Shown piece after piece: positions 7,430 to 46,163 of a stretch of 64,000 nucleotides of DNA (within the stretch, counting starts at the first letter, position 1; every line of letters starts with the position of its first letter). The DNA comes from a virus. Taxonomy: Duplodnaviria > Heunggongvirae > Uroviricota > Caudoviricetes. The stretch lies in the IMG/VR virus record IMGVR_UViG_3300027295_000004. The stretch is one strand, 5' to 3'. The translations under genes and the position numbers were made by a program. The notes under the pieces are model-generated. The model saw nothing but the letters and a program-made list of their open reading frames with translations. It did not search any database and was not told where the DNA came from.

Positions 7430-7508
7430 AGTTATTATATGCTTTGGTTGTTAATAACTATACAACGTGGTGTTTGTTTACTCAACTGCTTATGTTAGTG
7501 ATATGGTA

Positions 7509-7580
7509 GGGGCGGAGGGATTCGAACCCACAATCAACCGATTATGCTTACCACTACGGCTTTCGCCGCCTGTATAGTTT
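7509..7580 (-). other. tRNA-like fragment (T-arm, 3' acceptor strand and CCA intact; 5' half does not fold canonically)
   Basis: Minus strand reads ..gtgggttcgaatccctccgcccctacca; no complementary 5' acceptor strand is present upstream; sits in a 300-nt ORF-free region. Confidence 0.25.
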
Positions 7581-7804
7581 GTGGTCTGGACTATCCCTTA
7601 ATCTTCGACATGACTCGGTAAGATTGAACTATTATAGTCTCTGCACGTTCCTCTTTCGAGGCTTCGCTCAGGATTGGCATCGGCATTATCCGTTAAGCGT
7701 TCCCTGAATTTAAGTTCTGCTAACTTACTATTTCTAATAAGAAGACCCGTTAAAGTCGGCTGCTTTGACCCTTAAGCTACACCCCCATAAATTTTTTCTA
7801 AAGA

Positions 7805-9294: not shown

Positions 9295-9370
9295 TGGTAG
9301 CCACGGTCGGACTCGAACCGACACTCTACGGATTTTAAGTCCGTTGCCTCTGCCATTGGACTACGTGGCC
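9295..9370 (-). tRNA. tRNA with anticodon UAA (Leu-type), but with a 4-nt variable loop (class I architecture)
   Basis: Minus strand: ggccacg-ta-..-acgga-cttaaaa-tccgt-agag-tgtcg-ttcgagt-ccgac-cgtggct-a-cca. Confidence 0.55.
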
Positions 9371-12527: not shown

Positions 12528-13553
12528 TTATTTGTTTGAGTCGTAATCGAGATTGATGATCTTGAACGAACCTTTGCTGTGTCGAACTACTACACCTTCA
12601 AAGGGTTTGCCATCGATTTGATTGATTCCTTTTTGGTAGAAGTTAATCATATCTTCGGATAGCAACGGCCTCACAGAGTGTTCAAAGTCAACAGTGTAAT
12701 TGTCGTTTACAAACGGCACATGAGGAATTTGTAATACAGCCGCCACGTTCGGGGAGTAATCAGCGTCGCCTTCCTTTTCATACTTCAGGGTATTAAGATT
12801 GAAGACACTGAATACGGCAAAGTCCAAGGGACCTTTGCTGTGTGGGTTCTTGCTGAAATTTTGGATATTGCCTCCATAGATTTCACCTCGAAGAGCAAGT
12901 GATACGTCGTTCCGTTTGCAATACTCAAGAAGCTTCTCGAGAATATTGTATTTCTTCACGATCTTGGTATAGTTGTTATTAGTTTCTGGTTTGATTTCTA
13001 GATTGCGACTAGTAACACCAGTAGACCATTCTCCGGTCGACGGATCTTTGCGTGCGTAGTAAGTAGCACTTTGCCCATCAATCTTCAGGGTGACATCAAC
13101 CTTTTCACCATACGGGAGAAACCCGATAAGGTTCTGGAATCGTTCTTCGTCAGTCTTCACCAGACTATACGGCAGATTCCCTTTAGCATCCAGAGAGGTT
13201 GGAGCAGGTGGGTCGTACTTATATACCCCAATATGGGAACTAATCTCAGTACCAACTTCGACATTTTGAAGATCGAATAACGAGTCTACTTCGGTAAGTC
13301 CCATGATAATACCAAACGACCATTCGCCTCGAAGCTTGATAGCTTTGACTCGCGACGACTTTTTCTTAAAGATTTCAGCCCAGGGCTTATCTGGAAGAAC
13401 AGTATCGGGCTGGATAAAGACTACACGATCACCTACCTTATATTTGTCTTTAAGAGTGATGCATTCATATCCTAGAACTCCAACGAGATCCAACGAATCT
13501 GCATTGGGATGATGTTTGACAGCAGCGATGGTTTCAATAGAGGCGAGCTTCAT
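12528..13553 (-). CDS. RNA ligase (Rnl2-type nucleotidyltransferase) with an N-terminal tRNA-binding OB-fold (Trbp111/EMAP-like) domain
   Basis: N terminus MKLASIETIAAVKHHPNADSLDLVGVLGYECITLKDKYKVGDRVVF resembles the tRNA-binding arm of Trbp111/MetRS; ligase motif I is LKIDGQS, motif IV is EGVVVRH, motif V is FKIIN. Start moved to the internal Met at 13553. Confidence 0.6.
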   Translation of the reverse strand: MKLASIETIAAVKHHPNADSLDLVGVLGYECITLKDKYKVGDRVVFIQPDTVLPDKPWAEIFKKKSSRVKAIKLRGEWSFGIIMGLTEVDSLFDLQNVEVGTEISSHIGVYKYDPPAPTSLDAKGNLPYSLVKTDEERFQNLIGFLPYGEKVDVTLKIDGQSATYYARKDPSTGEWSTGVTSRNLEIKPETNNNYTKIVKKYNILEKLLEYCKRNDVSLALRGEIYGGNIQNFSKNPHSKGPLDFAVFSVFNLNTLKYEKEGDADYSPNVAAVLQIPHVPFVNDNYTVDFEHSVRPLLSEDMINFYQKGINQIDGKPFEGVVVRHSKGSFKIINLDYDSNK

Positions 13554-13593
13554 GTAGTTAATATAGCTCGAGGTGTGATGTGTATCAACTATT

Positions 13594-13944
13594 TTAGCAT
13601 TTAAGCCAGCGCCATCTTTTATGTCGAACTGCCCATTTTCGTGGGATCCATGACAAAATTTTATTGACAAACGACATGACAACTTTGTTGTATTTATACT
13701 CAGTTGCATCCCCTTGTTTCCATACGACGATATGGTCGGGCACCACTGTTGGTCTGTTATTGCCTATGCGATAGACTCGATTCCAATATACAATATCTCT
13801 ATATGGAGACACCCAGCCTTGGAACCTATCATATCGTGCTGTTAATGTGTCGTAGCTTCTTCTGGAGAAACTTCGTTCGGCATAGTGCCCATCTTCATGA
13901 TAGACATATATCGTTGCATTTCCGAAATCATTAAGGGGATTCAT
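13594..13944 (-). CDS. Hypothetical protein (116 aa)
   Basis: ORF. Confidence 0.4.
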   Translation of the reverse strand: MNPLNDFGNATIYVYHEDGHYAERSFSRRSYDTLTARYDRFQGWVSPYRDIVYWNRVYRIGNNRPTVVPDHIVVWKQGDATEYKYNKVVMSFVNKILSWIPRKWAVRHKRWRWLKC

Positions 13945-16576: not shown

Positions 16577-17281
16577 TTATTCAGTGTAGTGGTACATATA
16601 CGCTTCATGGCAATCAACGCAGCGGAATTTGGTATTCTCAACGAATGCGGTTGCTGATTCATGGAAGTGACCAAAGAACCAATGCTTTGGTTTAGTTAGT
16701 TGATACAGCTTATCCATATCTTCATTTTCAATCTTGAGATCCTGTTCCAGATCTTTATCAGCCACCATCATCGATTTGACAAAGTTATTAATACCAAAAA
16801 GACCCGAGATCGGGGGGCGGGTATGAGTTACTACAGCATCGTATGTTTCGTATGCAAAATTCTCATTAAGATAGAACGTTTCATTTTTCCACCAAGTAGG
16901 AATGCTAGTATTATATCTATCAATCCGATCAATCGATACTGCACCGCCTACAAGAAGAATTTTCTTACCAAGCAATTCAAGAACAGTATAGTCGGGGAGC
17001 AATTCGATATTGTCATACCCTCCTATTGTCTTCCTAGTATTAAAGTATCCTGGGTCATCATGGTTTCCACGAATGACATACAAGTGACTATTCGATTCAG
17101 CAAGGAACTTGTGAAGTGGTTTGAGTAATTTTGGGTACTCATGATCCTCAAAGAAACCAATACCAAAATCCCCCACATGGATGATATGAGCATTCTCGAT
17201 TTGATTTCGCTTAAGCTTAATAGCAAAAAGACCAACATCTCCGTGAATGTCTCCAGCAATAATAATTTTATCTTTTGTCAT
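16577..17281 (-). CDS. Calcineurin-like metallophosphoesterase
   Basis: Motifs GDIHGD, GDFGIG, GNHDD and GHFHE (binuclear metallophosphatase signature). Confidence 0.7.
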   Translation of the reverse strand: MTKDKIIIAGDIHGDVGLFAIKLKRNQIENAHIIHVGDFGIGFFEDHEYPKLLKPLHKFLAESNSHLYVIRGNHDDPGYFNTRKTIGGYDNIELLPDYTVLELLGKKILLVGGAVSIDRIDRYNTSIPTWWKNETFYLNENFAYETYDAVVTHTRPPISGLFGINNFVKSMMVADKDLEQDLKIENEDMDKLYQLTKPKHWFFGHFHESATAFVENTKFRCVDCHEAYMYHYTE

Positions 17282-24867: not shown

Positions 24868-24956
24868 GGGTTCTTTTCCTGACGGTGGACTGTAAATCCA
24901 TTGCCGTGTTATGTCAGGCGGTTCGGCAGAAGGTTCAACTCCTTGAGGACCCACCA
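24868..24956 (+). tRNA. Atypical tRNA-like gene (GUA Tyr-type anticodon hairpin; truncated D-arm; ~27-nt variable region)
   Basis: Acceptor gggttct/aggaccc-a-cca; T-arm gaagg-ttcaact-ccttg; anticodon hairpin gtgga-ctgtaaa-tccat. The D region is only 8-9 nt and can instead pair with the variable region (cctgac/gtcagg). Confidence 0.35.
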
Positions 24957-27013: not shown

Positions 27014-27109
27014 GCTCCTGTAGCTCAATTGGTAGAGCGGAAAGCTTATACCTTTCGTATGCCCCAGATTAGGGCGCGGTTGTCGGTTCGAATCCGGCCA
27101 GGAGTACCA
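27014..27109 (+). tRNA. Atypical tRNA with anticodon UAU (Ile-type) and a ~25-nt variable region
   Basis: gctcctg-ta-gctcaattggtagagc-g-gaaag-cttatac-ctttc-[25 nt]-gtcgg-ttcgaat-ccggc-caggagt-a-cca. Confidence 0.4.
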
Positions 27110-27604: not shown

Positions 27605-27679
27605 TCCTCAGTGGCAGACTAGCAATGCACCCGACTGTTAATCGGGATTATGAAGGAGCGTAACCTTCCTGAGGAGCCA
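27605..27679 (+). tRNA. tRNA-Asn (GUU) with an aberrant T-loop (AGCGTAA) and a D-loop without GG
   Basis: Acceptor tcctcag/ctgagga-g-cca; anticodon cccga-ctgttaa-tcggg. Confidence 0.45.
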
Positions 27680-30492: not shown

Positions 30493-30627
30493 ATGGATAT
30501 AGACTCAATTATCACTACAATACCAAAATTGATTTATTTCACAAGCATTGGATTTTTAGTTATATTGTACTTTGCATTGATTATCAAAGCATTGGTTATC
30601 GCACTCGATGCAATCATTGATTTCTAA
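30493..30627 (+). CDS. Small hydrophobic (membrane) protein (44 aa)
   Basis: ORF 30403-30627 trimmed to the Met at 30493 downstream of the tRNA. Confidence 0.3.
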   Translation: MDIDSIITTIPKLIYFTSIGFLVILYFALIIKALVIALDAIIDF

Positions 30628-30630
30628 AAT

Positions 30631-30927
30631 ATGAGTGGAGGGCATTTTGATTACAATCAATTTCGATTGACTGACATTTCGAGGGAAATCATGTCCCTTA
30701 TTAATAGCAATGAAGTTCCAAATGAATTCAGGCAGGCTCGGAAGTATCCTACTGATATTTTAGATAAGTTTGAAGTAGCAATGATTATATTAGATACTGC
30801 TGCAGATATAGTACATCATATCGATTATCTTGTTGAAGGAGATATTGGAGAAGATACATTCAGGGAACTATATAACAAAGCAATCAAGGATTTTTGTACC
30901 AAACTTGCAGAACATCAACTTACTTAA
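30631..30927 (+). CDS. Hypothetical protein (98 aa)
   Basis: ORF. Confidence 0.4.
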   Translation: MSGGHFDYNQFRLTDISREIMSLINSNEVPNEFRQARKYPTDILDKFEVAMIILDTAADIVHHIDYLVEGDIGEDTFRELYNKAIKDFCTKLAEHQLT

Positions 30928-31506: not shown

Positions 31507-31582
31507 GGATGGCGACCCGGCTAGTGAAGGGCTACGTCTGCAAAACGTTTGTTGTTGAGTGCGATTCTCAAGCCATCCTCCA
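31507..31582 (+). tRNA. tRNA-Cys (GCA) with a non-canonical T-loop TGCGATT
   Basis: ggatggc-ga-ccc-ggctagtgaa-ggg-c-tacgt-ctgcaaa-acgtt-tgttg-ttgag-tgcgatt-ctcaa-gccatcc-t-cca. Confidence 0.5.
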
Positions 31583-32760: not shown

Positions 32761-32837
32761 AGCCACGTGATGTAATTGGTAAACGTGACGGTCTCAAAAA
32801 CTGTTTTCTATGGGTTCGAGTCCCATCGTGGCTACCA
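32761..32837 (+). tRNA. tRNA with anticodon CAA (Leu-type) but a 5-nt variable loop (class I architecture), A73
   Basis: agccacg-tg-atgt-aattggtaa-acgt-g-acggt-ctcaaaa-actgt-tttct-atggg-ttcgagt-cccat-cgtggct-a-cca. Confidence 0.5.
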
Positions 32838-32838
32838 T

Positions 32839-32915
32839 GCCCTGTGTAGCATATTTAGTTAATGTCTTCGCCTGTGAAGCGAACGAAGATGGTGCAATTC
32901 CATCCCAGGGAACCA
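32839..32915 (+). tRNA. tRNA-His (GUG) with a non-canonical T-loop TGCAATT, D-loop without GG and an imperfect acceptor stem
   Basis: Anticodon ttcgc-ctgtgaa-gcgaa; T-arm gatgg-tgcaatt-ccatc; the 5' g at 32839 may be the His G-1. Confidence 0.45.
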
Positions 32916-33065
32916 ATTCGCGAATAGTTAATGGTATCGTTCGAAAGATACTAAAGACTAACTGAGACCCCCATTTCGAAGTTTATAGGTTGAACACCGC
33001 AGTTAATCGGTGCGGGAGGTGTGTTCGAGTGCACACGATGGATCAGGTCTCGACAATTTACATAT

Positions 33066-33139
33066 GCCCGCATAGCCCAATCGGTAGAGGCACTTGACTT
33101 AGGATCAAGAGGTTGGGGGTTCGAATCCCTCTGCGGGTA
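33066..33139 (+). tRNA. tRNA with anticodon UAG (Leu-type) but a 5-nt variable loop, A73, no encoded CCA
   Basis: gcccgca-ta-gcc-caatcggtaga-ggc-a-cttga-cttagga-tcaag-aggtt-ggggg-ttcgaat-ccctc-tgcgggt-a. Confidence 0.5.
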
Positions 33140-33147
33140 CTTTTTAT

Positions 33148-33228
33148 GGGAGTGTTAGCGTAGCGGCCGAACGCACCAGTTTTACACACTGGCAATCATC
33201 ACAGGTTCGAATCCTGTCGCTCCTACCA
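33148..33228 (+). tRNA. tRNA-Val (UAC) with an 8-nt variable region
   Basis: Acceptor gggagtg/cgctcct-a-cca; anticodon ccagt-tttacac-actgg; T-arm acagg-ttcgaat-cctgt. Confidence 0.55.
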
Positions 33229-33234
33229 TTTCAT

Positions 33235-33311
33235 GGCTATATGACGTAATTGGTAAACGTATTGCATTGAGGATGCAAGTTTTGCAGGTTCGAGTCCTGT
33301 TATAGCCACCA
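33235..33311 (+). tRNA. tRNA with anticodon GAG (Leu-type) but a 5-nt variable loop, A73
   Basis: ggctata-tg-acgt-aattggtaa-acgt-a-ttgca-ttgagga-tgcaa-gtttt-gcagg-ttcgagt-cctgt-tatagcc-a-cca. Confidence 0.55.
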
Positions 33312-38827: not shown

Positions 38828-41035
38828 ATGCTCGATAAACATTACATGAAAGACATTTTAGTCAAAAAACGGACAGGAGATACAGAAATTTTCGATGCAG
38901 AAAAGGCCAATAGAATGGTCTACCATGCAACAAAAGGCGTAGCAGGAGCATCAGCAATTGATATTCTTATGAATGCCAAGATTAACTTCTACGATGGCAT
39001 CACCTCAGCGGAAATTCAAGACTCATTGGTTAAGTCAGCAGAAGATCTTATTTCTTTAGAAAATCCAAATTATTCAATTGTAGCCGCACGGCTTTTGGTA
39101 TATGGCCTTCGTAAAGAAGTGTGGGGTGGTAATACACCACCAAGACTATATGACCACATCAAGAAATGTGTAGACCTCGGAGTCTATACAGATGAGCTAA
39201 TTAACAAGTTCAGTGAAGAAGAGATCAATAAGATTGGCAGTTATATTGACCACGAAAGAGACGAGACTATGTTCGATTTTGCTGGCATGAAGCATCTCGT
39301 GCGCACTGGCTTAGTTCAAGATCGAGTCAATCATAAAGTATATGAGACTCCTCAATTTGCGTTCATGTGTATTGGTATGTCTCACTATGCAAATTATGAA
39401 TCCAAGAAACGGATTCAATATATCCGCCAATTCTATGACGATGTATCTGAGCGTCGTTTGAATATACCAACACCAATGCTTACAAGATGGAGAACCCCCG
39501 TTAAGACAGGTGCATCTTGTTGCTTGATTCAAGTCGATGATACGGCAGACTCGATCTTTTCGTCTGCGCATATTATGGCGAGGGCTACCAGTTATGGATA
39601 TGGCATTGGATTAGATTTCGGCAAGATTCGTGGTGTTGGGTCTCCTGTTAAGAATGGCGAGACTATTCATGGTGGGGTTATTCCATATCTCAAAGTGTTC
39701 CAAGATGCGATCAAGTCTCAGCAACAAGGTGGTGCTAGACGTGGTGCCGGTACAGCCAATGCACCTATTTTCCATTGGGAGATTGAATCTATTCTCCAAT
39801 TGCGAAATGTTGGTGGTACCGAATATAATCGTGTAAGACATCTTGACTATGTAATTGGTATTTCTAAAATCTTCTATGAACGCTGGAATGAAGGCGGAAA
39901 CATTACTCTATTCTCGAATCATGAGGTTCCTGAATTATTTGATTCGTTTGGTATGCCTGAATTTGACGAGCTTTATCTCAAGGCAGAAGCAAACCCAGAG
40001 ATTAAATTTAAAAAGTCTATTCCTGCAGATGATATCTTTGATTCTTTGATCAAAGAAAGAATCGAAACGAACAGAATTTATATTCTTAATATCGATCTTG
40101 CTAATGATTTTTCTCCATGGACTGAGCGTGTCAACATGACGAATCTTTGTGTAGAAATCCTACAACCAACGAAACCATGTCAATCCCTAGATGATCCTAA
40201 TGGTGAAATTGGTACGTGTTTGCTTGCGGCGGTCAATATGCTCAATATCAGATCGGCAAATGAACACCGTGAGGTATGCCATCAGGCCGTACGCATGCTA
40301 GATGATATGGTAGATCGCCAATTATACTTTGCACCTGCTGCCGAAAGATTCACTAAGAATAAAAGATCGCTTGGTATTGGCATTACTAATCTAGCAGGAT
40401 GGTTAGCGACACAAGGCTTGAATCATGATTCACCAGAAGCACCTAATGCTATCGATGAGTTCATGGAACGCCAGCAATATTACCTAATGGAGGCATCTTG
40501 GTTGCTTGCCAAAGAAAAGGGACCAGCGCCTGACTGGTCTAAATCCAAATACGCTCAAGGATATTCCAAGCTTGATCTATACAAGAAGGATGTGGATGAA
40601 TTTATTACCAGAAAGCCTTCAATGGACTGGGATGCCCTGATGTCAAATATTCGTCGTGACGGCATGAGAAACATGACGGTCTCCTCACAGATGCCGTGCG
40701 AAAAGTGCCTAAAATGGGATACCAAAGTCTTTGTTGATGGCAAACCTATGAACTTCCATGAAATTTGCGAACAACTTGGGTTTTCGTGGAAGAATATTGA
40801 AATGCATGATATGAAAGGCTGGCATGAGTCTGATAAAACTATTACACTCGAAACAAAAGACGGGCCGGTTGAGACGAATAGAATTTATTACAATGGCACT
40901 AGCGAAGTATTTGATATTGAGCTTGAAAATGGTGATATTATCAAAGCGACTAAAGATCATAGATTCCTGACCAAGGATGGGTGGAAGACAGTGGAAGAAC
41001 TTTCAGTTGACGAAGAAATTATGGAAATCGAATAA
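38828..41035 (+). CDS. nrdA: Ribonucleotide reductase class I alpha subunit, N-terminal extein (to 40705) fused to the split-intein N-fragment (IntN, 40706-41032)
   Basis: ATP-cone at the N terminus, catalytic NLCVEI, ..SSQMPCEK then CLKWDTKVFVDG (intein block A) and EVFDIELENGDIIKATKDHRFLTKDG, closely resembling DnaE-type IntN. Confidence 0.85.
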   Translation: MLDKHYMKDILVKKRTGDTEIFDAEKANRMVYHATKGVAGASAIDILMNAKINFYDGITSAEIQDSLVKSAEDLISLENPNYSIVAARLLVYGLRKEVWGGNTPPRLYDHIKKCVDLGVYTDELINKFSEEEINKIGSYIDHERDETMFDFAGMKHLVRTGLVQDRVNHKVYETPQFAFMCIGMSHYANYESKKRIQYIRQFYDDVSERRLNIPTPMLTRWRTPVKTGASCCLIQVDDTADSIFSSAHIMARATSYGYGIGLDFGKIRGVGSPVKNGETIHGGVIPYLKVFQDAIKSQQQGGARRGAGTANAPIFHWEIESILQLRNVGGTEYNRVRHLDYVIGISKIFYERWNEGGNITLFSNHEVPELFDSFGMPEFDELYLKAEANPEIKFKKSIPADDIFDSLIKERIETNRIYILNIDLANDFSPWTERVNMTNLCVEILQPTKPCQSLDDPNGEIGTCLLAAVNMLNIRSANEHREVCHQAVRMLDDMVDRQLYFAPAAERFTKNKRSLGIGITNLAGWLATQGLNHDSPEAPNAIDEFMERQQYYLMEASWLLAKEKGPAPDWSKSKYAQGYSKLDLYKKDVDEFITRKPSMDWDALMSNIRRDGMRNMTVSSQMPCEKCLKWDTKVFVDGKPMNFHEICEQLGFSWKNIEMHDMKGWHESDKTITLETKDGPVETNRIYYNGTSEVFDIELENGDIIKATKDHRFLTKDGWKTVEELSVDEEIMEIE

Positions 41036-41084: not shown

Positions 41085-42173
41085 ATGGCAACTAAACGTT
41101 CTAATCTAAAGAGTAGTATTATCGATTTTTTAAATGCATTTTCATCGAATATAAATGCCAAAAAAGATGTAGATGAATTATATGGCGAGGGATTTCAAGG
41201 CAAAACTATAAAAGTTTTCGCAATGGCGATAAAAGACAAATGGTCAAAAGATGGATTTTACAAATGGAATACCCGAGTCAAATATTGTCTTCAAAACAAA
41301 ATTCCGGTTATGTATGATCCACTCACAGCATCTCTCAAATTCGGTATTACATTAATTGAAGCGGAATTAAAAATAGCCAATTTAAAATCTCAAAAGACTA
41401 CATCTTTAGAAGGGTTTTGTGCGAGACACGGCAAAGAAAAAGGCGAAGCATTATTTAAAAAATTTCAGTTGTCAAGCAAGAAATCCTCAGTTAATATATT
41501 GAATGAGTATAAACAAAAATATCCACATACATGGAAATGTGAATATAGTAATTACATGCGCCGCAAATCCAAATGGTGCAAAGAGTATTATTTGTCAAGA
41601 CAAGATTGCACCGAAGAGGAAGCTAGTAAATTAGCACGAGAATACTATTTTCAAAAGTGTGGGCTACTGAGCTCTGTATATTACGACAAAGGGTATACGG
41701 ATGAGGATATTGATATTATTTTGGAAAAAATAAATGCCAAACGTATATTCAACAACACAAGAAACCCAACCAATCTCCAACGCATATTTGGTGATGAATG
41801 GCTTGCACATCATCAAGAGATTAATAATAAGTTAAGAGAGACAATGGAAAAAAAAGGTGTGTGGCTAACTCTTGACAAATTAGATGACTGGAAGAAATAC
41901 AAAATGGAAGTAGGATTTTGGACATCCCAATCAATCAATGATAATGAAGTACTTTTTGAAAAAAGAAGCAAGGAATATCATGTAGACCATCGATATTCAC
42001 AGAAGCAAGGATATATAAACGACATATCACCGAGAGTGATTGGGTCTGTTGTCAATTTAGAAATTTTAGAGAGATCAAAAAATTGTTCAAAACAAAGCAA
42101 GTCAAGCATCAGTATTGACGAATTGTATAAAATATATAACGAATATGAAAATCAACAGAATAACAAAATCTAA
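41085..42173 (+). CDS. Free-standing HNH homing endonuclease inserted between the two nrdA/intein halves
   Basis: C-terminal EYHVDHRYSQKQGYINDISPRVIGSVVNLEILERSKNCSK (HNH motif); in a different frame from both nrdA halves. Confidence 0.6.
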   Translation: MATKRSNLKSSIIDFLNAFSSNINAKKDVDELYGEGFQGKTIKVFAMAIKDKWSKDGFYKWNTRVKYCLQNKIPVMYDPLTASLKFGITLIEAELKIANLKSQKTTSLEGFCARHGKEKGEALFKKFQLSSKKSSVNILNEYKQKYPHTWKCEYSNYMRRKSKWCKEYYLSRQDCTEEEASKLAREYYFQKCGLLSSVYYDKGYTDEDIDIILEKINAKRIFNNTRNPTNLQRIFGDEWLAHHQEINNKLRETMEKKGVWLTLDKLDDWKKYKMEVGFWTSQSINDNEVLFEKRSKEYHVDHRYSQKQGYINDISPRVIGSVVNLEILERSKNCSKQSKSSISIDELYKIYNEYENQQNNKI

Positions 42174-42708
42174 CGAAATTTGTCCAACGTACGACGTAGA
42201 ATCTCCAAATGTCCATTCTTATGTAATCGACTCGGGAAAAAGCAAGATTATATCGCACAATAGTTCTTTAACCCAGAATTCGACTAATGGTATGGAACCA
42301 ATTGTCAGTCTCTTCCAATTCAAAGATGATCGTCAAGGAAGTGCGGCATGGATTGCACCAGGTGCAAAGAAATACGGTAAGTATTATAAATCGGCGTATG
42401 ATTGTACAAATGAAGGAATTATCAAATGTGCTGCAGCTATTACGAAATGGCTGTGCATGGCCGCTAGTACCAATCATTACTACAACTACGGCAATTATGA
42501 GAATAATAAACTTGAAACTACAGACGTTGCGTATGATATTCTTTTATCATACAAATACGGTCTGAAGACTCTTTATTATGCGAAGAACAAACAAATAGTC
42601 TCAGCAGACACAAGTCTTGCTGCGGAAGAAGTCTCAGAAAATGATACATCAGAAAAAGCCGAGTCTTCGGACGATTCTGGATGTGCTACCGGATTTTGCT
42701 CACTATGA
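42145..42708 (+). CDS. nrdA: Split-intein C-fragment (IntC, 39 aa, 42145-42261) fused to the nrdA C-terminal extein
   Basis: MKINRITKSNEICPTYDVESPNVHSYVIDSGKSKIISHN followed by +1 Ser; extein SSLTQNSTNGMEP... continues the conserved NrdA segment (MPxExSSxxSNxTNGxEP), then a C-terminal Cys pair. Confidence 0.8.
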   Translation: MKINRITKSNEICPTYDVESPNVHSYVIDSGKSKIISHNSSLTQNSTNGMEPIVSLFQFKDDRQGSAAWIAPGAKKYGKYYKSAYDCTNEGIIKCAAAITKWLCMAASTNHYYNYGNYENNKLETTDVAYDILLSYKYGLKTLYYAKNKQIVSADTSLAAEEVSENDTSEKAESSDDSGCATGFCSL

Positions 42709-44487: not shown

Positions 44488-45225
44488 TTATACAGCTCCT
44501 AGCTTGCGTGCTATGAGTTTAAGGATTGCAGAACGAACAATATCATCCTCAGTAAATTTGAACGAATAAATACCGTTTTCGATACATTCAACATCAGCAA
44601 AAGCCTTTGTAGCACGTGTAAATCCAGAACGCTCGCCGATGTCGGCTTGCTTGGCATCTCCAATAACAACATATTGAGTGTTGTTACCAAATCGTGTTAA
44701 ACAACTGGTCAATTCTTTGAAGTCAAGATTCTGAGCTTCGTCAATAATGACAAAGCTATCGTGGAATGTCATGCCTCTTACAAAGTTAACAGGAACACAC
44801 TCGATTCTATTGTCTTCCATTAAATTTGCGATAGTAGTGCGATCAATTAGCTCTGATAATTTTTCCATTAACGGAATTGACCATGGTTTGAATTTTTCAT
44901 CCAATTCACCAGGCAATGATCCAATACTTTTCGCTGCGGATTCTGCTATGCTTCGAATATATACAATTTTTTCGAAGTGTCTCTGTGATAGGTGCTTTAG
45001 TCCTGCAAGAACAGATAGATATGTTTTACCTGATCCAGCGGGGCCATCTACCATGACCATTTTTGTGTCTACATCGTCTAATAGCTGTAAAAATCTTTTG
45101 TGTGTTTCGTTGAAATCAAATTTGCAATAGATTTTAAAATTTAGACCGTCAATTTCCCTGCCAAAATATACTCTGGCAAGCTCATCAGTTTCTTCGGGGT
45201 GCCGAAGTCGCTTTTTCTTGGACAT
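44488..45225 (-). CDS. phoH: PhoH-family ATPase
   Basis: Walker A VDGPAGSGKTYL, Walker B IIDEAQN; full-length PhoH-like architecture. Confidence 0.85.
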   Translation of the reverse strand: MSKKKRLRHPEETDELARVYFGREIDGLNFKIYCKFDFNETHKRFLQLLDDVDTKMVMVDGPAGSGKTYLSVLAGLKHLSQRHFEKIVYIRSIAESAAKSIGSLPGELDEKFKPWSIPLMEKLSELIDRTTIANLMEDNRIECVPVNFVRGMTFHDSFVIIDEAQNLDFKELTSCLTRFGNNTQYVVIGDAKQADIGERSGFTRATKAFADVECIENGIYSFKFTEDDIVRSAILKLIARKLGAV

Positions 45226-45231
45226 GTAAAA

Positions 45232-45687
45232 TTACTTACACGTATTATCCAAATCTTTATCTGTGATGATAATAAATTTCATGCCGTACTTGTTTGCAAA
45301 GCCTTTTGCTGCTTCCCATTTGGCATTGTTTACCACCCATGTTGCATGCTCATGAATGATAGTTGATTCTTTTTTCTTTTTAGTAATAGTAGGCTGAATG
45401 GTTTGCTTATAAGGCTTGATTTCAATGAGGTATTTGCAGATCTTATCGCGTTCGCGGACTTTAACGTACATATCGACGATATAACGATGAACTGCATTAT
45501 CAATAGGAGAAACGTACGGGACTATCACATTCTCAGAGCCCCATTCAATGACATTGGCGTTCTTATCACACCAGATCATAAATTTTCTTTCCAGAAAACT
45601 ACGGTAGATAATATTACCAGAGTTTGTGCACTTCGCCCTGTTAAGTGGTTTATATACTCCTTGTTTGAATTGTGCGTATTTTTTCAT
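45232..45687 (-). CDS. Hypothetical protein, possibly a PD-(D/E)xK-fold nuclease
   Basis: IVDMYV...YLIEIKP gives a D...E-x-K arrangement. Confidence 0.4.
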   Translation of the reverse strand: MKKYAQFKQGVYKPLNRAKCTNSGNIIYRSFLERKFMIWCDKNANVIEWGSENVIVPYVSPIDNAVHRYIVDMYVKVRERDKICKYLIEIKPYKQTIQPTITKKKKESTIIHEHATWVVNNAKWEAAKGFANKYGMKFIIITDKDLDNTCK

Positions 45688-46163
45688 CAGTTCTCCAAAC
45701 GAGACTGGAAGTCATCCTCTATCTGCTGCTTAGTTACATATGTATGGAATTTTGAATTCTGGTAAAACTTAGCATCCGTTTCTGTTCTAATAAGGAGCTT
45801 TCGGTAAAATTGCAACATTTCTTCCATTGGCTCATCCACCCAAGGCAATTGGTCTTTTTCGTATTGGATCAGTAAGGTGTTGATAATATTCATCAATACG
45901 TATACTGGTTCGAATTTTCGGAAAAAGACATCATACATTTGCTTTTGCAAATCGACTTCCGATATCTTAAACGGCTGTTGGCTTTTGTCTACAAATTGGC
46001 CATCATCATAATCTCCTATCCATTCGTATGCGTCTAGATTAAAGCCTCCCTCTATTTCAATCTTTCGATATAATGAGCCGGGTGGCAAATTTTCACTACC
46101 AATAGAAAAGCATACAAATTTTTTATTTGTTTTATTGAAAAGGGCGTATAAGTTATTATCCAT
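45687..46163 (-). CDS. Hypothetical protein (158 aa)
   Basis: ORF. Confidence 0.4.
   Translation of the reverse strand: MDNNLYALFNKTNKKFVCFSIGSENLPPGSLYRKIEIEGGFNLDAYEWIGDYDDGQFVDKSQQPFKISEVDLQKQMYDVFFRKFEPVYVLMNIINTLLIQYEKDQLPWVDEPMEEMLQFYRKLLIRTETDAKFYQNSKFHTYVTKQQIEDDFQSRLEN

Follow-up and report, generated by a model that had tools for sequence, protein, structure and literature searches.

The tRNA-Leu of animal mitochondria is a class I molecule, which has its identity through A73 and A14 and has a dedicated mitochondrial LeuRS. In bacteria, textbooks and the 2019 Streptomyces paper alike treat a short-arm tRNA-Leu as a rare exception. That paper describes the type I tRNA-Leu(CAA) of Streptomyces coelicolor, which is leucylated (Fan et al., NAR 2019, PMC6614811). 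The leucine-specific domain of the S. coelicolor LeuRS conferred charging of this tRNA, and the LeuRS of E. coli and that of S. purpurogeneiscleroticus both left it uncharged (PMC6614811). The long variable arm defines tRNA-Leu as class II, but it does not define identity for E. coli LeuRS (PMC9976931). What that enzyme needs is A73, A14, A15-U48, G18G19 and A20a, and it requires neither the anticodon nor the long arm; a minimal tRNA-Leu without the arm stays active (PMC9976931). In the account that PMC9976931 gives of Larkin et al. (2002), an engineered minimal E. coli tRNA-Leu without the arm is aminoacylated and edited if A73 and the D/T-loop contacts are kept. A phage tRNA with an unusual variable region is known as well. 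The tRNA-Tyr of phage T5 has a distinctive variable loop that resists the PtuAB of retron-Eco7 (PMC11555353; PMC13096335).

We analysed 64 kb of phage DNA, and the whole of this stretch is called the window here. It carries a full set of four Leu isoacceptors, all with short arms. Like the S. coelicolor type I tRNA-Leu(CAA), which a bacterial LeuRS leucylates (PMC6614811), these genes have a bacterial-type body, a 5-nt loop, A73 and a U8-A14 pair. Unlike it, they are encoded by a phage and the short arm extends to all four isoacceptors. Two of them, CAA and GAG, also belong to another lineage, with a U8-G9 D arm that is typical of long-arm tRNA-Leu. Identity between the window genes and the actinobacterial type I copies is 59-74%, and the features of type I (a Leu anticodon, a 4-5-nt loop and a bacterial-type body) are all present. 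The Streptomyces chromosomal copy is 73% identical to the window Leu(UAA), and both have U8-A9, C13.A22 and a AAUUGGUAG-type D arm.

The other systems are alike in part. Canonical class II tRNA-Leu has the same identity determinants and D-arm layout, but the window genes have no long arm. The engineered minimal tRNA-Leu is a laboratory construct that lacks the anticodon arm too, whereas the window genes are natural and complete. Animal mitochondrial tRNA-Leu shares the short variable loop, but its structure is degenerate and it has no close sequence relationship to the window genes. Like them, the T5 tRNA-Tyr is a class II isotype that the phage encodes with a variable region unlike that of the host tRNA, and in T5 this difference defeats a loop-cutting nuclease. 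However, it is of another isotype, and its arm is altered where that of the window Leu tRNAs is removed.

Four leucine tRNA genes with short variable loops

ARAGORN finds 29 tRNA genes in the 64-kb window, and 4 of them have Leu anticodons. The first, tRNA-Leu(UAA), lies on the minus strand at 9295-9370 and was found by ARAGORN, by the Rfam tRNA model (62.3 bits) and by our own parse. Its variable loop is AGAGU (5 nt), it has A73 and an encoded CCA, and its anticodon loop is CUUAAAA. The D arm reads GUC/C-AAUGGCAG-A/GGC, a 3-bp stem followed by a C13.A22 mismatch. JGI contig Ga0255137_1000001 carries this gene too, and the class I tRNA-Leu(CAA) genes on the chromosomes of Streptomyces and Bifidobacterium are 73-74% identical to it.

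The other three are on the plus strand, again called by ARAGORN. tRNA-Leu(CAA) at 32761-32837 (Rfam 57.9 bits) has the variable loop UUUCU (5 nt), A73, an encoded CCA, the anticodon loop CUCAAAA and the D arm UG-AUGU-AAUUGGUAA-ACGU. tRNA-Leu(UAG) at 33066-33140 (Rfam 66.0 bits) has the variable loop AGGUU (5 nt) and A73, and of the CCA only C74 is encoded. Its D arm is GCC/C-AAUCGGUAG-A/GGC, again with C13.A22, and its anticodon loop is CUUAGGA, with G36G37. It is 83.8% identical to a tRNA-Leu of Gordonia phage Keelan and 74-80% identical to short-arm Leu tRNAs of bacterial genome contigs. tRNA-Leu(GAG) at 33235-33311 (Rfam 65.4 bits) has the variable loop GUUUU (5 nt), A73, an encoded CCA and the anticodon loop UUGAGGA. 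Its D arm, UG-ACGU-AAUUGGUAA-ACGU, is the same as in a long-arm viral tRNA-Leu(UAA) at locus L086.

Counting the encoded CCA the genes are 75-77 nt long. Parsing from both ends gives each of the four a 7-bp acceptor stem, a 5-nt variable loop, a canonical T arm and A73, and with the Rfam model RF00005 the four score 57.9-66.0 bits, where the gathering score is 29. A class II tRNA has a variable arm of at least 10 nt that forms a stem-loop, and here the variable region is 5 nt in every case. Folding of single sequences with RNAfold gives a cloverleaf for 3 of the 4, with weak z-scores (-0.8 to -1.7) that are not distinctive. The window thus contains Leu-anticodon tRNAs of class I architecture, as the first-pass annotation had proposed from their short loops and A73. 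Neither ARAGORN nor Rfam gave another anticodon or a long arm. The coordinates in that annotation hold for CAA, GAG and UAA, but it ended UAG at 33139 where ARAGORN ends it at 33140. It had also argued that long-armed Ser tRNAs in the same array speak against a parsing artefact, and the 4 Ser tRNAs do have variable arms of 20-22 nt, with G73. A relaxed search of the window for missed tRNAs by T-arm-like motifs adds four more genes (a CAU tRNA with an intron, a Cys, an Asn and a tRNA-like gene with a GUA loop), and it found no additional Leu tRNA, long-arm or otherwise.

Leucine identity of the tRNA bodies

All four genes carry A14, the A15-U48 Levitt pair, G18G19 and A20a within a typical tRNA-Leu D arm. 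They fall into two pairs. In UAA and UAG, U8-A9 is followed by a 3-bp D stem with C13.A22 and an AAU(Y)GGYAG loop, and E. coli tRNA-Leu has the same D-arm layout. These two are 73-80% identical to short-arm tRNA-Leu from bacterial contigs, including Streptomyces and Bifidobacterium. By this similarity they belong to a family that includes the actinobacterial chromosomal type I tRNA-Leu. In CAA and GAG position 13:22 is U13-A22, and the shared D arm is U8-G9 / AYGU-AAUUGGUAA-ACGU. An IMG/VR scan for this D arm finds it in short-arm Leu tRNAs (L081-L085) and in an 85-nt long-arm tRNA-Leu(UAA), the one at L086.

Positions 8-26 and the T arm were also compared with 896 distinct viral tRNAs. Leu(CAA) has Leu tRNAs as 15 of its 15 nearest neighbours (8 long-arm and 7 short-arm) and Leu(GAG) as 14 of 15, a result that is partly built in since tRNAs with the AAUUGGUA D loop are over-represented in the comparison set. 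Among the 15 nearest neighbours, Leu tRNAs make up no more than 8 for Leu(UAA) and 7 for Leu(UAG). One candidate signature must be discarded. A15-U48 with A73 is not specific to Leu: five other isotypes of the array (Lys, Gly(UCC), Met, Arg(UCU) and Glu) have these two elements and A14 as well. What makes the tRNAs specific to Leu must then be the geometry of the D loop. The anticodon loops carry A36A37A38 in the readers of UUR and G36G37 in the readers of CUN, which are the usual signals for anticodon-loop modification.

Charging and function

We argue that these are probably four working phage tRNA-Leu genes which descend from long-arm tRNA-Leu, have had the arm cut to 5 nt and are charged by the host LeuRS. 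In this scenario an ordinary bacterial-type long-arm tRNA-Leu would have had its variable arm reduced to a class I loop of 5 nt. The determinants known for bacterial LeuRS would all have been retained (A73, A14, A15-U48, G18G19, A20a and the Leu-type D arm). Since these are kept, and since bacterial LeuRS ignores both the anticodon and the long arm, the host LeuRS would be expected to charge the short-arm tRNAs with leucine. The Ser tRNAs of the array have kept their long arms because SerRS requires the arm.

It must be noted that E. coli LeuRS failed on the S. coelicolor type I tRNA, so charging by the LeuRS of the phage host is not to be assumed. Phages of Escherichia, Vibrio and Pseudomonas carry such genes. 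Either their tRNAs differ from the S. coelicolor one in what matters, or the generalisation is too narrow. One can also read the failure of E. coli-type LeuRS as favouring decoys. The short-arm RNAs would then have no part in translation, acting as uncharged sponges or competitors for host tRNA nucleases or modification enzymes, or as regulators. However, A73 is invariant, the CCA is encoded in most of them, the T loops are canonical, the anticodon stems covary and the four anticodons jointly cover the six Leu codons. These are the needs of decoding, which argues against a decoy role, and we hold such a role to be improbable.

Codon coverage and the meaning of leucine codons

If the genes work in translation as we propose, no Leu codon would be left unread. 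UAA reads UUA and UUG, CAA reads UUG, UAG reads CUA and CUG, and GAG reads CUC and CUU. The phage uses all six codons, at 7.5-17.8 per thousand.

A different possibility is that class I tRNAs of another identity have gained Leu anticodons, so that Leu codons are read as something else. The short loop, A73 and A15-U48 are all common to the Lys, Gly, Met, Arg and Glu tRNAs of the array, and on the sequence alone charging may be independent of LeuRS. The meaning of the codons was examined in 4 conserved window proteins aligned to their homologues, taking the majority residue at each site. A pooled count of conservation was discarded in favour of this measure since one protein with 79 homologues dominated it. 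At 77 Leu-codon sites the homologue majority is Leu in 41, Ile in 9, Val in 4 and Met in 3. Leu is the top aligned residue at each of the six codons, with small samples of 7-18 sites per codon. Control codons give a similar rate: Ile is the majority residue at 30 of 59 ATT sites, and Phe at 20 of 42 TTT sites. Leu-codon sites align chiefly with Leu, so recoding is unlikely, and the same alignments lend indirect support to leucylation of the four tRNAs. The D arms are also Leu-type and the same as in long-arm tRNA-Leu. Taken as a whole, we consider a switch of identity to be very improbable.

Distribution in viruses and bacteria

IMG/VR was searched with a pattern of a Leu-type D loop, a NAR anticodon and a T loop, with a variable region of 4-26 nt so that either architecture could match; it occurs at no fewer than 120 loci. 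The viral sample consists of 131 loci, 120 pattern loci among the matches listed and 11 others, with 193 Leu tRNAs. Among these, 51 of 193 Leu tRNAs (26%) have loops of 5-7 nt. In the same 131 loci short loops are found in only 2 of 67 Ser tRNAs and 1 of 23 Tyr tRNAs, again among the matches listed, which makes the short loop a peculiarity of Leu. Leu loop lengths are sharply bimodal in this material: 42 tRNAs have 5 nt, most others have 13-17 nt, and few are intermediate.

The architecture is not distributed at random among genomes. Among the matches listed, 44 viral loci have two or more Leu tRNAs. Every Leu tRNA is long-armed in 20 of these loci and short-armed in 9, and the other 15 have both kinds. 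The expectation from shuffling is about 14 all-long, 25 mixed and 4.4 all-short loci. Nine all-short loci against 4.4 expected means that arm architecture is correlated within genomes. If genes were independent, the chance that four of four are short at 26% would be 0.26^4, about 0.5%, but the correlation within genomes means that they are not. All-short Leu sets like that of the window are not unusual.

Cultured phages have them too. Escherichia phage Av-05 has an unannotated short-arm Leu(UAG) of 77 nt and Vibrio phage JSF10 a short-arm Leu(UAG) of 74 nt. In Pseudomonas phage M5.1 a short-arm Leu of 77 nt stands beside an 85-nt Leu, and in Streptomyces phage Jay2Jay a short-arm Leu(CAA) of 77 nt stands beside a GAG of 83 nt. 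No more than 6 GenBank phage records contain the Av-05 gene, so that gene is not widespread in coliphages. The tRNA-Leu of phage T5 is long-armed.

Bacteria were scanned with one genome per species for the short-arm spacing only, which gave at least 120 loci. Among the matches listed, the Bifidobacteriaceae have a conserved chromosomal short-arm tRNA-Leu(CAA), and many Actinomycetota including Streptomyces carry short-arm Leu copies. At least 34 bacterial short-arm loci have five or more tRNAs within 8 kb, and in several dense arrays among the matches listed every Leu isoacceptor is short-armed. The first-pass annotation had presented short-arm Leu tRNAs as exceptional. Its structural reading stands, but their rarity was overstated in view of about a quarter of the viral Leu tRNAs among the matches listed, the cultured phages, the bacterial chromosomes and arrays, and S. 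coelicolor.

Short-arm tRNA-Leu is itself already known from animal mitochondria and S. coelicolor. We found no description of it in phages or tRNA arrays in the searchable literature, outside which most subscription journals lie. Within the same literature, with the same journals outside it, the term type I tRNA-Leu appears only in the 2019 paper (PMC6614811). The wide spread of short-arm tRNA-Leu in phages and mobile arrays, and its repeated origin, seem not to have been stated before. This raises the questions of which bacterial LeuRS accept a natural tRNA-Leu without the arm and whether loss of the arm shields phage tRNAs from defence. It has a practical side as well, since annotation tools call such genes tRNA-Leu by the anticodon alone.

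Maintenance and origin of the short arm

One can imagine that short-arm genes are long-arm tRNA-Leu with deletions, decaying pseudogenes whose function is gone. Phage arrays do hold odd genes; in this window the T loops of some tRNAs are non-canonical, and one tRNA-like gene has a D arm that is poor. The four Leu tRNAs do not look like these, as their Rfam scores of 58-66 bits are in the upper half of the array. The bimodal lengths, with few intermediates among the matches listed, also speak against decay, as does an alignment of 48 distinct viral short-arm Leu tRNAs (79 columns). In this set 92.8% of cloverleaf positions are paired against 55.5% in shuffles, and changes on both sides are seen at 21 of 21 pairs. 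The covariation score is 0.975, and it is at most 0.21 when the partners are slid by 1-3 columns. All 48 have A73, A15, G18 and A20a, and at least 90% have U48, while 13:22 is unpaired in 41 of 48. By these patterns of conservation the viral short-arm Leu tRNAs are maintained genes and not debris, and we find decay hardly credible. The weakest alternative is an annotation artefact, with a wrong anticodon or an overlooked arm or intron, and we put its chance at practically nil, since two independent programs (ARAGORN and Rfam) and the hand parse concur and the gaps of only 1-10 nt between the Leu genes and neighbouring tRNAs leave no room for a missed arm.

With the anticodon arm and variable region excluded, the nearest relative is a long-arm Leu for 19 of 49 distinct short-arm Leu tRNAs. 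In one such case a GAG tRNA with a 5-nt loop (L150) and a UAG tRNA with a 13-nt arm (L155) are identical in the first 27 nt and in the 3' acceptor strand. L107 and L094 have the same pattern. Such near-identical pairs imply that the arm was lost, or exchanged, many times and recently. Judged by the likeness of the bodies, short-arm tRNA-Leu is shown to descend from long-arm tRNA-Leu.

Why the arm was lost

There are two options. Loss of the arm may have been tolerated and have come in by drift in mobile tRNA arrays, where constraint is relaxed, or it may have been selected. Pure drift fits poorly with the sharply bimodal loop lengths among the matches listed and with the long arms of cellular tRNA-Leu, which to our knowledge are near-universal. 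Of the class II isotypes, Leu is the one for which the bacterial synthetase is known to do without the arm, and so phages and arrays can carry an arm-less Leu.

Several effectors act on the variable region or on class II tRNAs. Some VapC toxins cleave variable loops, and the MenT nucleotidyltransferases have an apparent preference for class II tRNAs. AbiEii likely prefers class II tRNAs too (preprint). [quoted passage not shown] By analogy, an arm-less tRNA-Leu might escape effectors that act on class II arms and sustain Leu decoding when the host tRNA-Leu is inactivated. We offer this anti-defence role tentatively and think it rather unlikely to be the reason for the loss. In a mirror version the phage itself would destroy the long-arm tRNA-Leu of the host and spare its own. 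An RNA ligase and a metallophosphoesterase are among the genes of the window; their presence is weak, circumstantial support for the view that RNA repair is important to this phage.

Genomic surroundings

The window is phage DNA. Besides those two genes it encodes ribonucleotide reductase, DNA ligase, ThyX thymidylate synthase, an HNH endonuclease and an ORF of 2490 aa. Sequence identical to the window is present in two metagenome contigs, ENA ERZ27251826 k141_302571 of 175,870 bp and JGI Ga0255137_1000001 of 195,888 bp, and the portion of the genome seen here is the 64 kb and about 10 kb past one end. A near-identity DNA search with the region found nothing close among GenBank phages. One flanking protein is recorded in 99 blocks of the collection, which means that this is a commonly sampled large phage. 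Among 29 window ORFs scanned there is no aminoacyl-tRNA synthetase or tRNA-modifying enzyme, and the RNA ligase and metallophosphoesterase are the only related genes.

For a flanking gene of 193 aa, 60 of 80 IMG/VR homologue loci were scanned and only 1 tRNA was found, so this gene travels independently of the tRNA array. The DNA ligase that lies inside the array leads to one distant locus, which has no Leu tRNA. The jumbo phages XacN1, Xoo-sp13, CM1 and RAS14 have glycosyltransferases that are 42-45% identical to that of the window. It had been suggested that related jumbo phages might also encode short-arm Leu tRNAs. This is not so for XacN1, one distant cultured relative, whose Leu tRNAs of 85 and 87 nt are long-armed.

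A long-arm tRNA with the anticodon UAU

ARAGORN also calls a tRNA-Ile(UAU) at 27014-27109 that combines a class I-type D arm with a 25-nt variable arm, which forms a hairpin with the 7-nt loop CAGAUUA. In an unbiased viral sample the loops of 8 of 8 long-arm UAU tRNAs fit YWGAUWA, with GAU in the centre, and 3 other UAU tRNAs are short-armed. The extra-arm loop resembles CUGAUAA, the anticodon loop of tRNA-Ile(GAU). A targeted IMG/VR scan finds at least 111 loci with a long-arm GAU-loop tRNA(UAU), and among the matches listed the extra-arm stem is 94% paired with compensatory changes in 4 of 4 pairs. Copies are present in one Synechococcus phage and one Acinetobacter phage.

One idea is that the extra arm mimics a GAU anticodon arm, so that IleRS would accept a UAU tRNA without lysidine. 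AUA codons in the phage proteins align with Ile at 7 of 13 sites. Two related copies from tRNA arrays have GAC for GAU in the extra-arm loop, which fits poorly with mimicry. A distant analogue is the long-arm tRNA-Ile(UAU) of nematodes, which is charged with Leu in vitro (PMC4300185). The long-arm tRNA(UAU) with its GAU loop may be more novel than the short-arm Leu set.

A long-arm tRNA(UAU)

Arm length is also unusual in a tRNA of the window with the anticodon UAU, which has a long variable arm (27014-27109, plus strand). The same type occurs in the viral contigs L104 (4469-4560) and L086 (2168-2259), in L141, L149, L154, L158 and L179, and in about 100 further loci within L338-L450, where the GAU loop described below is again found. 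It is widespread, as a targeted scan found at least 111 of these tRNAs in viral contigs. Copies are also present in Synechococcus phage SynMITS9220M01 and Acinetobacter phage qsb1. The arm is 21-25 nt and folds as a hairpin with a 7-nt loop. Its stem shows covariation and is 94% paired. The loop reads CAGAUUA, CAGAUAA or CUGAUAA, so it has a central GAU and resembles the anticodon loop of tRNA-Ile(GAU). Going by this likeness in sequence, the extra arm may present IleRS with a mimic of an anticodon arm. Two array copies have GAC in place of GAU, which sits less well with this idea. A literature search found no description of a long-arm tRNA(UAU) with a GAU loop.

Arm lengths in other phages and in bacteria

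Lys, Gly, Thr, Cys and Asn tRNAs are class I as a rule. The jumbo phage XacN1 (AP018399), a distant cultured relative of the window's phage, has tRNAs of 86-91 nt with the anticodons of Lys(CUU), Gly(UCC), Thr(UGU), Cys and Asn (30563-30651, 39053-39138, 42569-42659, 45202-45290 and 45979-46067). The XacN1 paper does not remark on its long tRNAs. Similar long arms appear sporadically across the IMG/VR loci in Asn, Cys, Glu, Trp, His, Val, Phe and Thr tRNAs. The opposite pattern is seen in tRNA-Tyr(GUA). Bacterial tRNA-Tyr is usually class II, but the genes in two viral contigs are of class I length (L337, 7770-7845; L112, 10786-10857).

Short-arm tRNA-Leu is not confined to viruses. Among the matches listed from a scan of one genome per bacterial species (L216-L331), many Actinomycetota have it, and the Bifidobacteriaceae have a conserved chromosomal copy (CAA, 75 nt). 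Also among these matches are dense tRNA arrays, in MAGs and on a Calothrix plasmid (L260), that are rich in short-arm tRNA-Leu. They reach 34 tRNAs in 8 kb, and every Leu isoacceptor in such an array can be short-arm. This bacterial spread of short-arm tRNA-Leu is wider than the accessible literature implies.

Other genes of the window

Three more tRNA or tRNA-like genes, all on the plus strand, are overlooked by default ARAGORN. The first (24868-24956, 89 nt) has a CUGUAAA loop (GUA, Tyr) and a long extra helix, lacks a canonical D arm, and scores 26 bits with the tRNA-Sec model. The others are a tRNA-Cys(GCA) (31507-31582), which has U73 and an unusual T loop, and a tRNA-Asn(GUU) with the T loop AGCGUAA (27605-27676; Rfam 47.9 bits). 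The 81-nt tRNA-Val(UAC) (33148-33228, plus strand) has an 8-nt variable loop, CAAUCAUC.

A tRNA(CAU) gene (7504-7786, minus strand) carries a 207-nt group I intron in its anticodon loop (7547-7753). The intron scores 40.3 bits against Rfam RF00028 (E 5e-9), under the gathering score of 50. When the exons (7786-7754 and 7546-7504) are joined in silico, the product is a 76-nt tRNA, identified by ARAGORN as Met(CAU); it could be Met, fMet or Ile2.

In the stretch from the lone Leu(UAA) gene to the main tRNA array, the minus strand encodes an RNA ligase (12528-13709; PF09414 and PHA02142 OB fold) as well as a calcineurin-like phosphoesterase (16577-17281). Together these may be an RNA-repair set.

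The large subunit of ribonucleotide reductase appears to be interrupted. Its region holds three plus-strand ORFs: a 735-aa ORF with a weak match to intein splicing (38828-41035), a 362-aa ORF (41085-42173), and an ORF of 187-197 aa with a second match to the large-subunit C-terminal domain (42115-42708).
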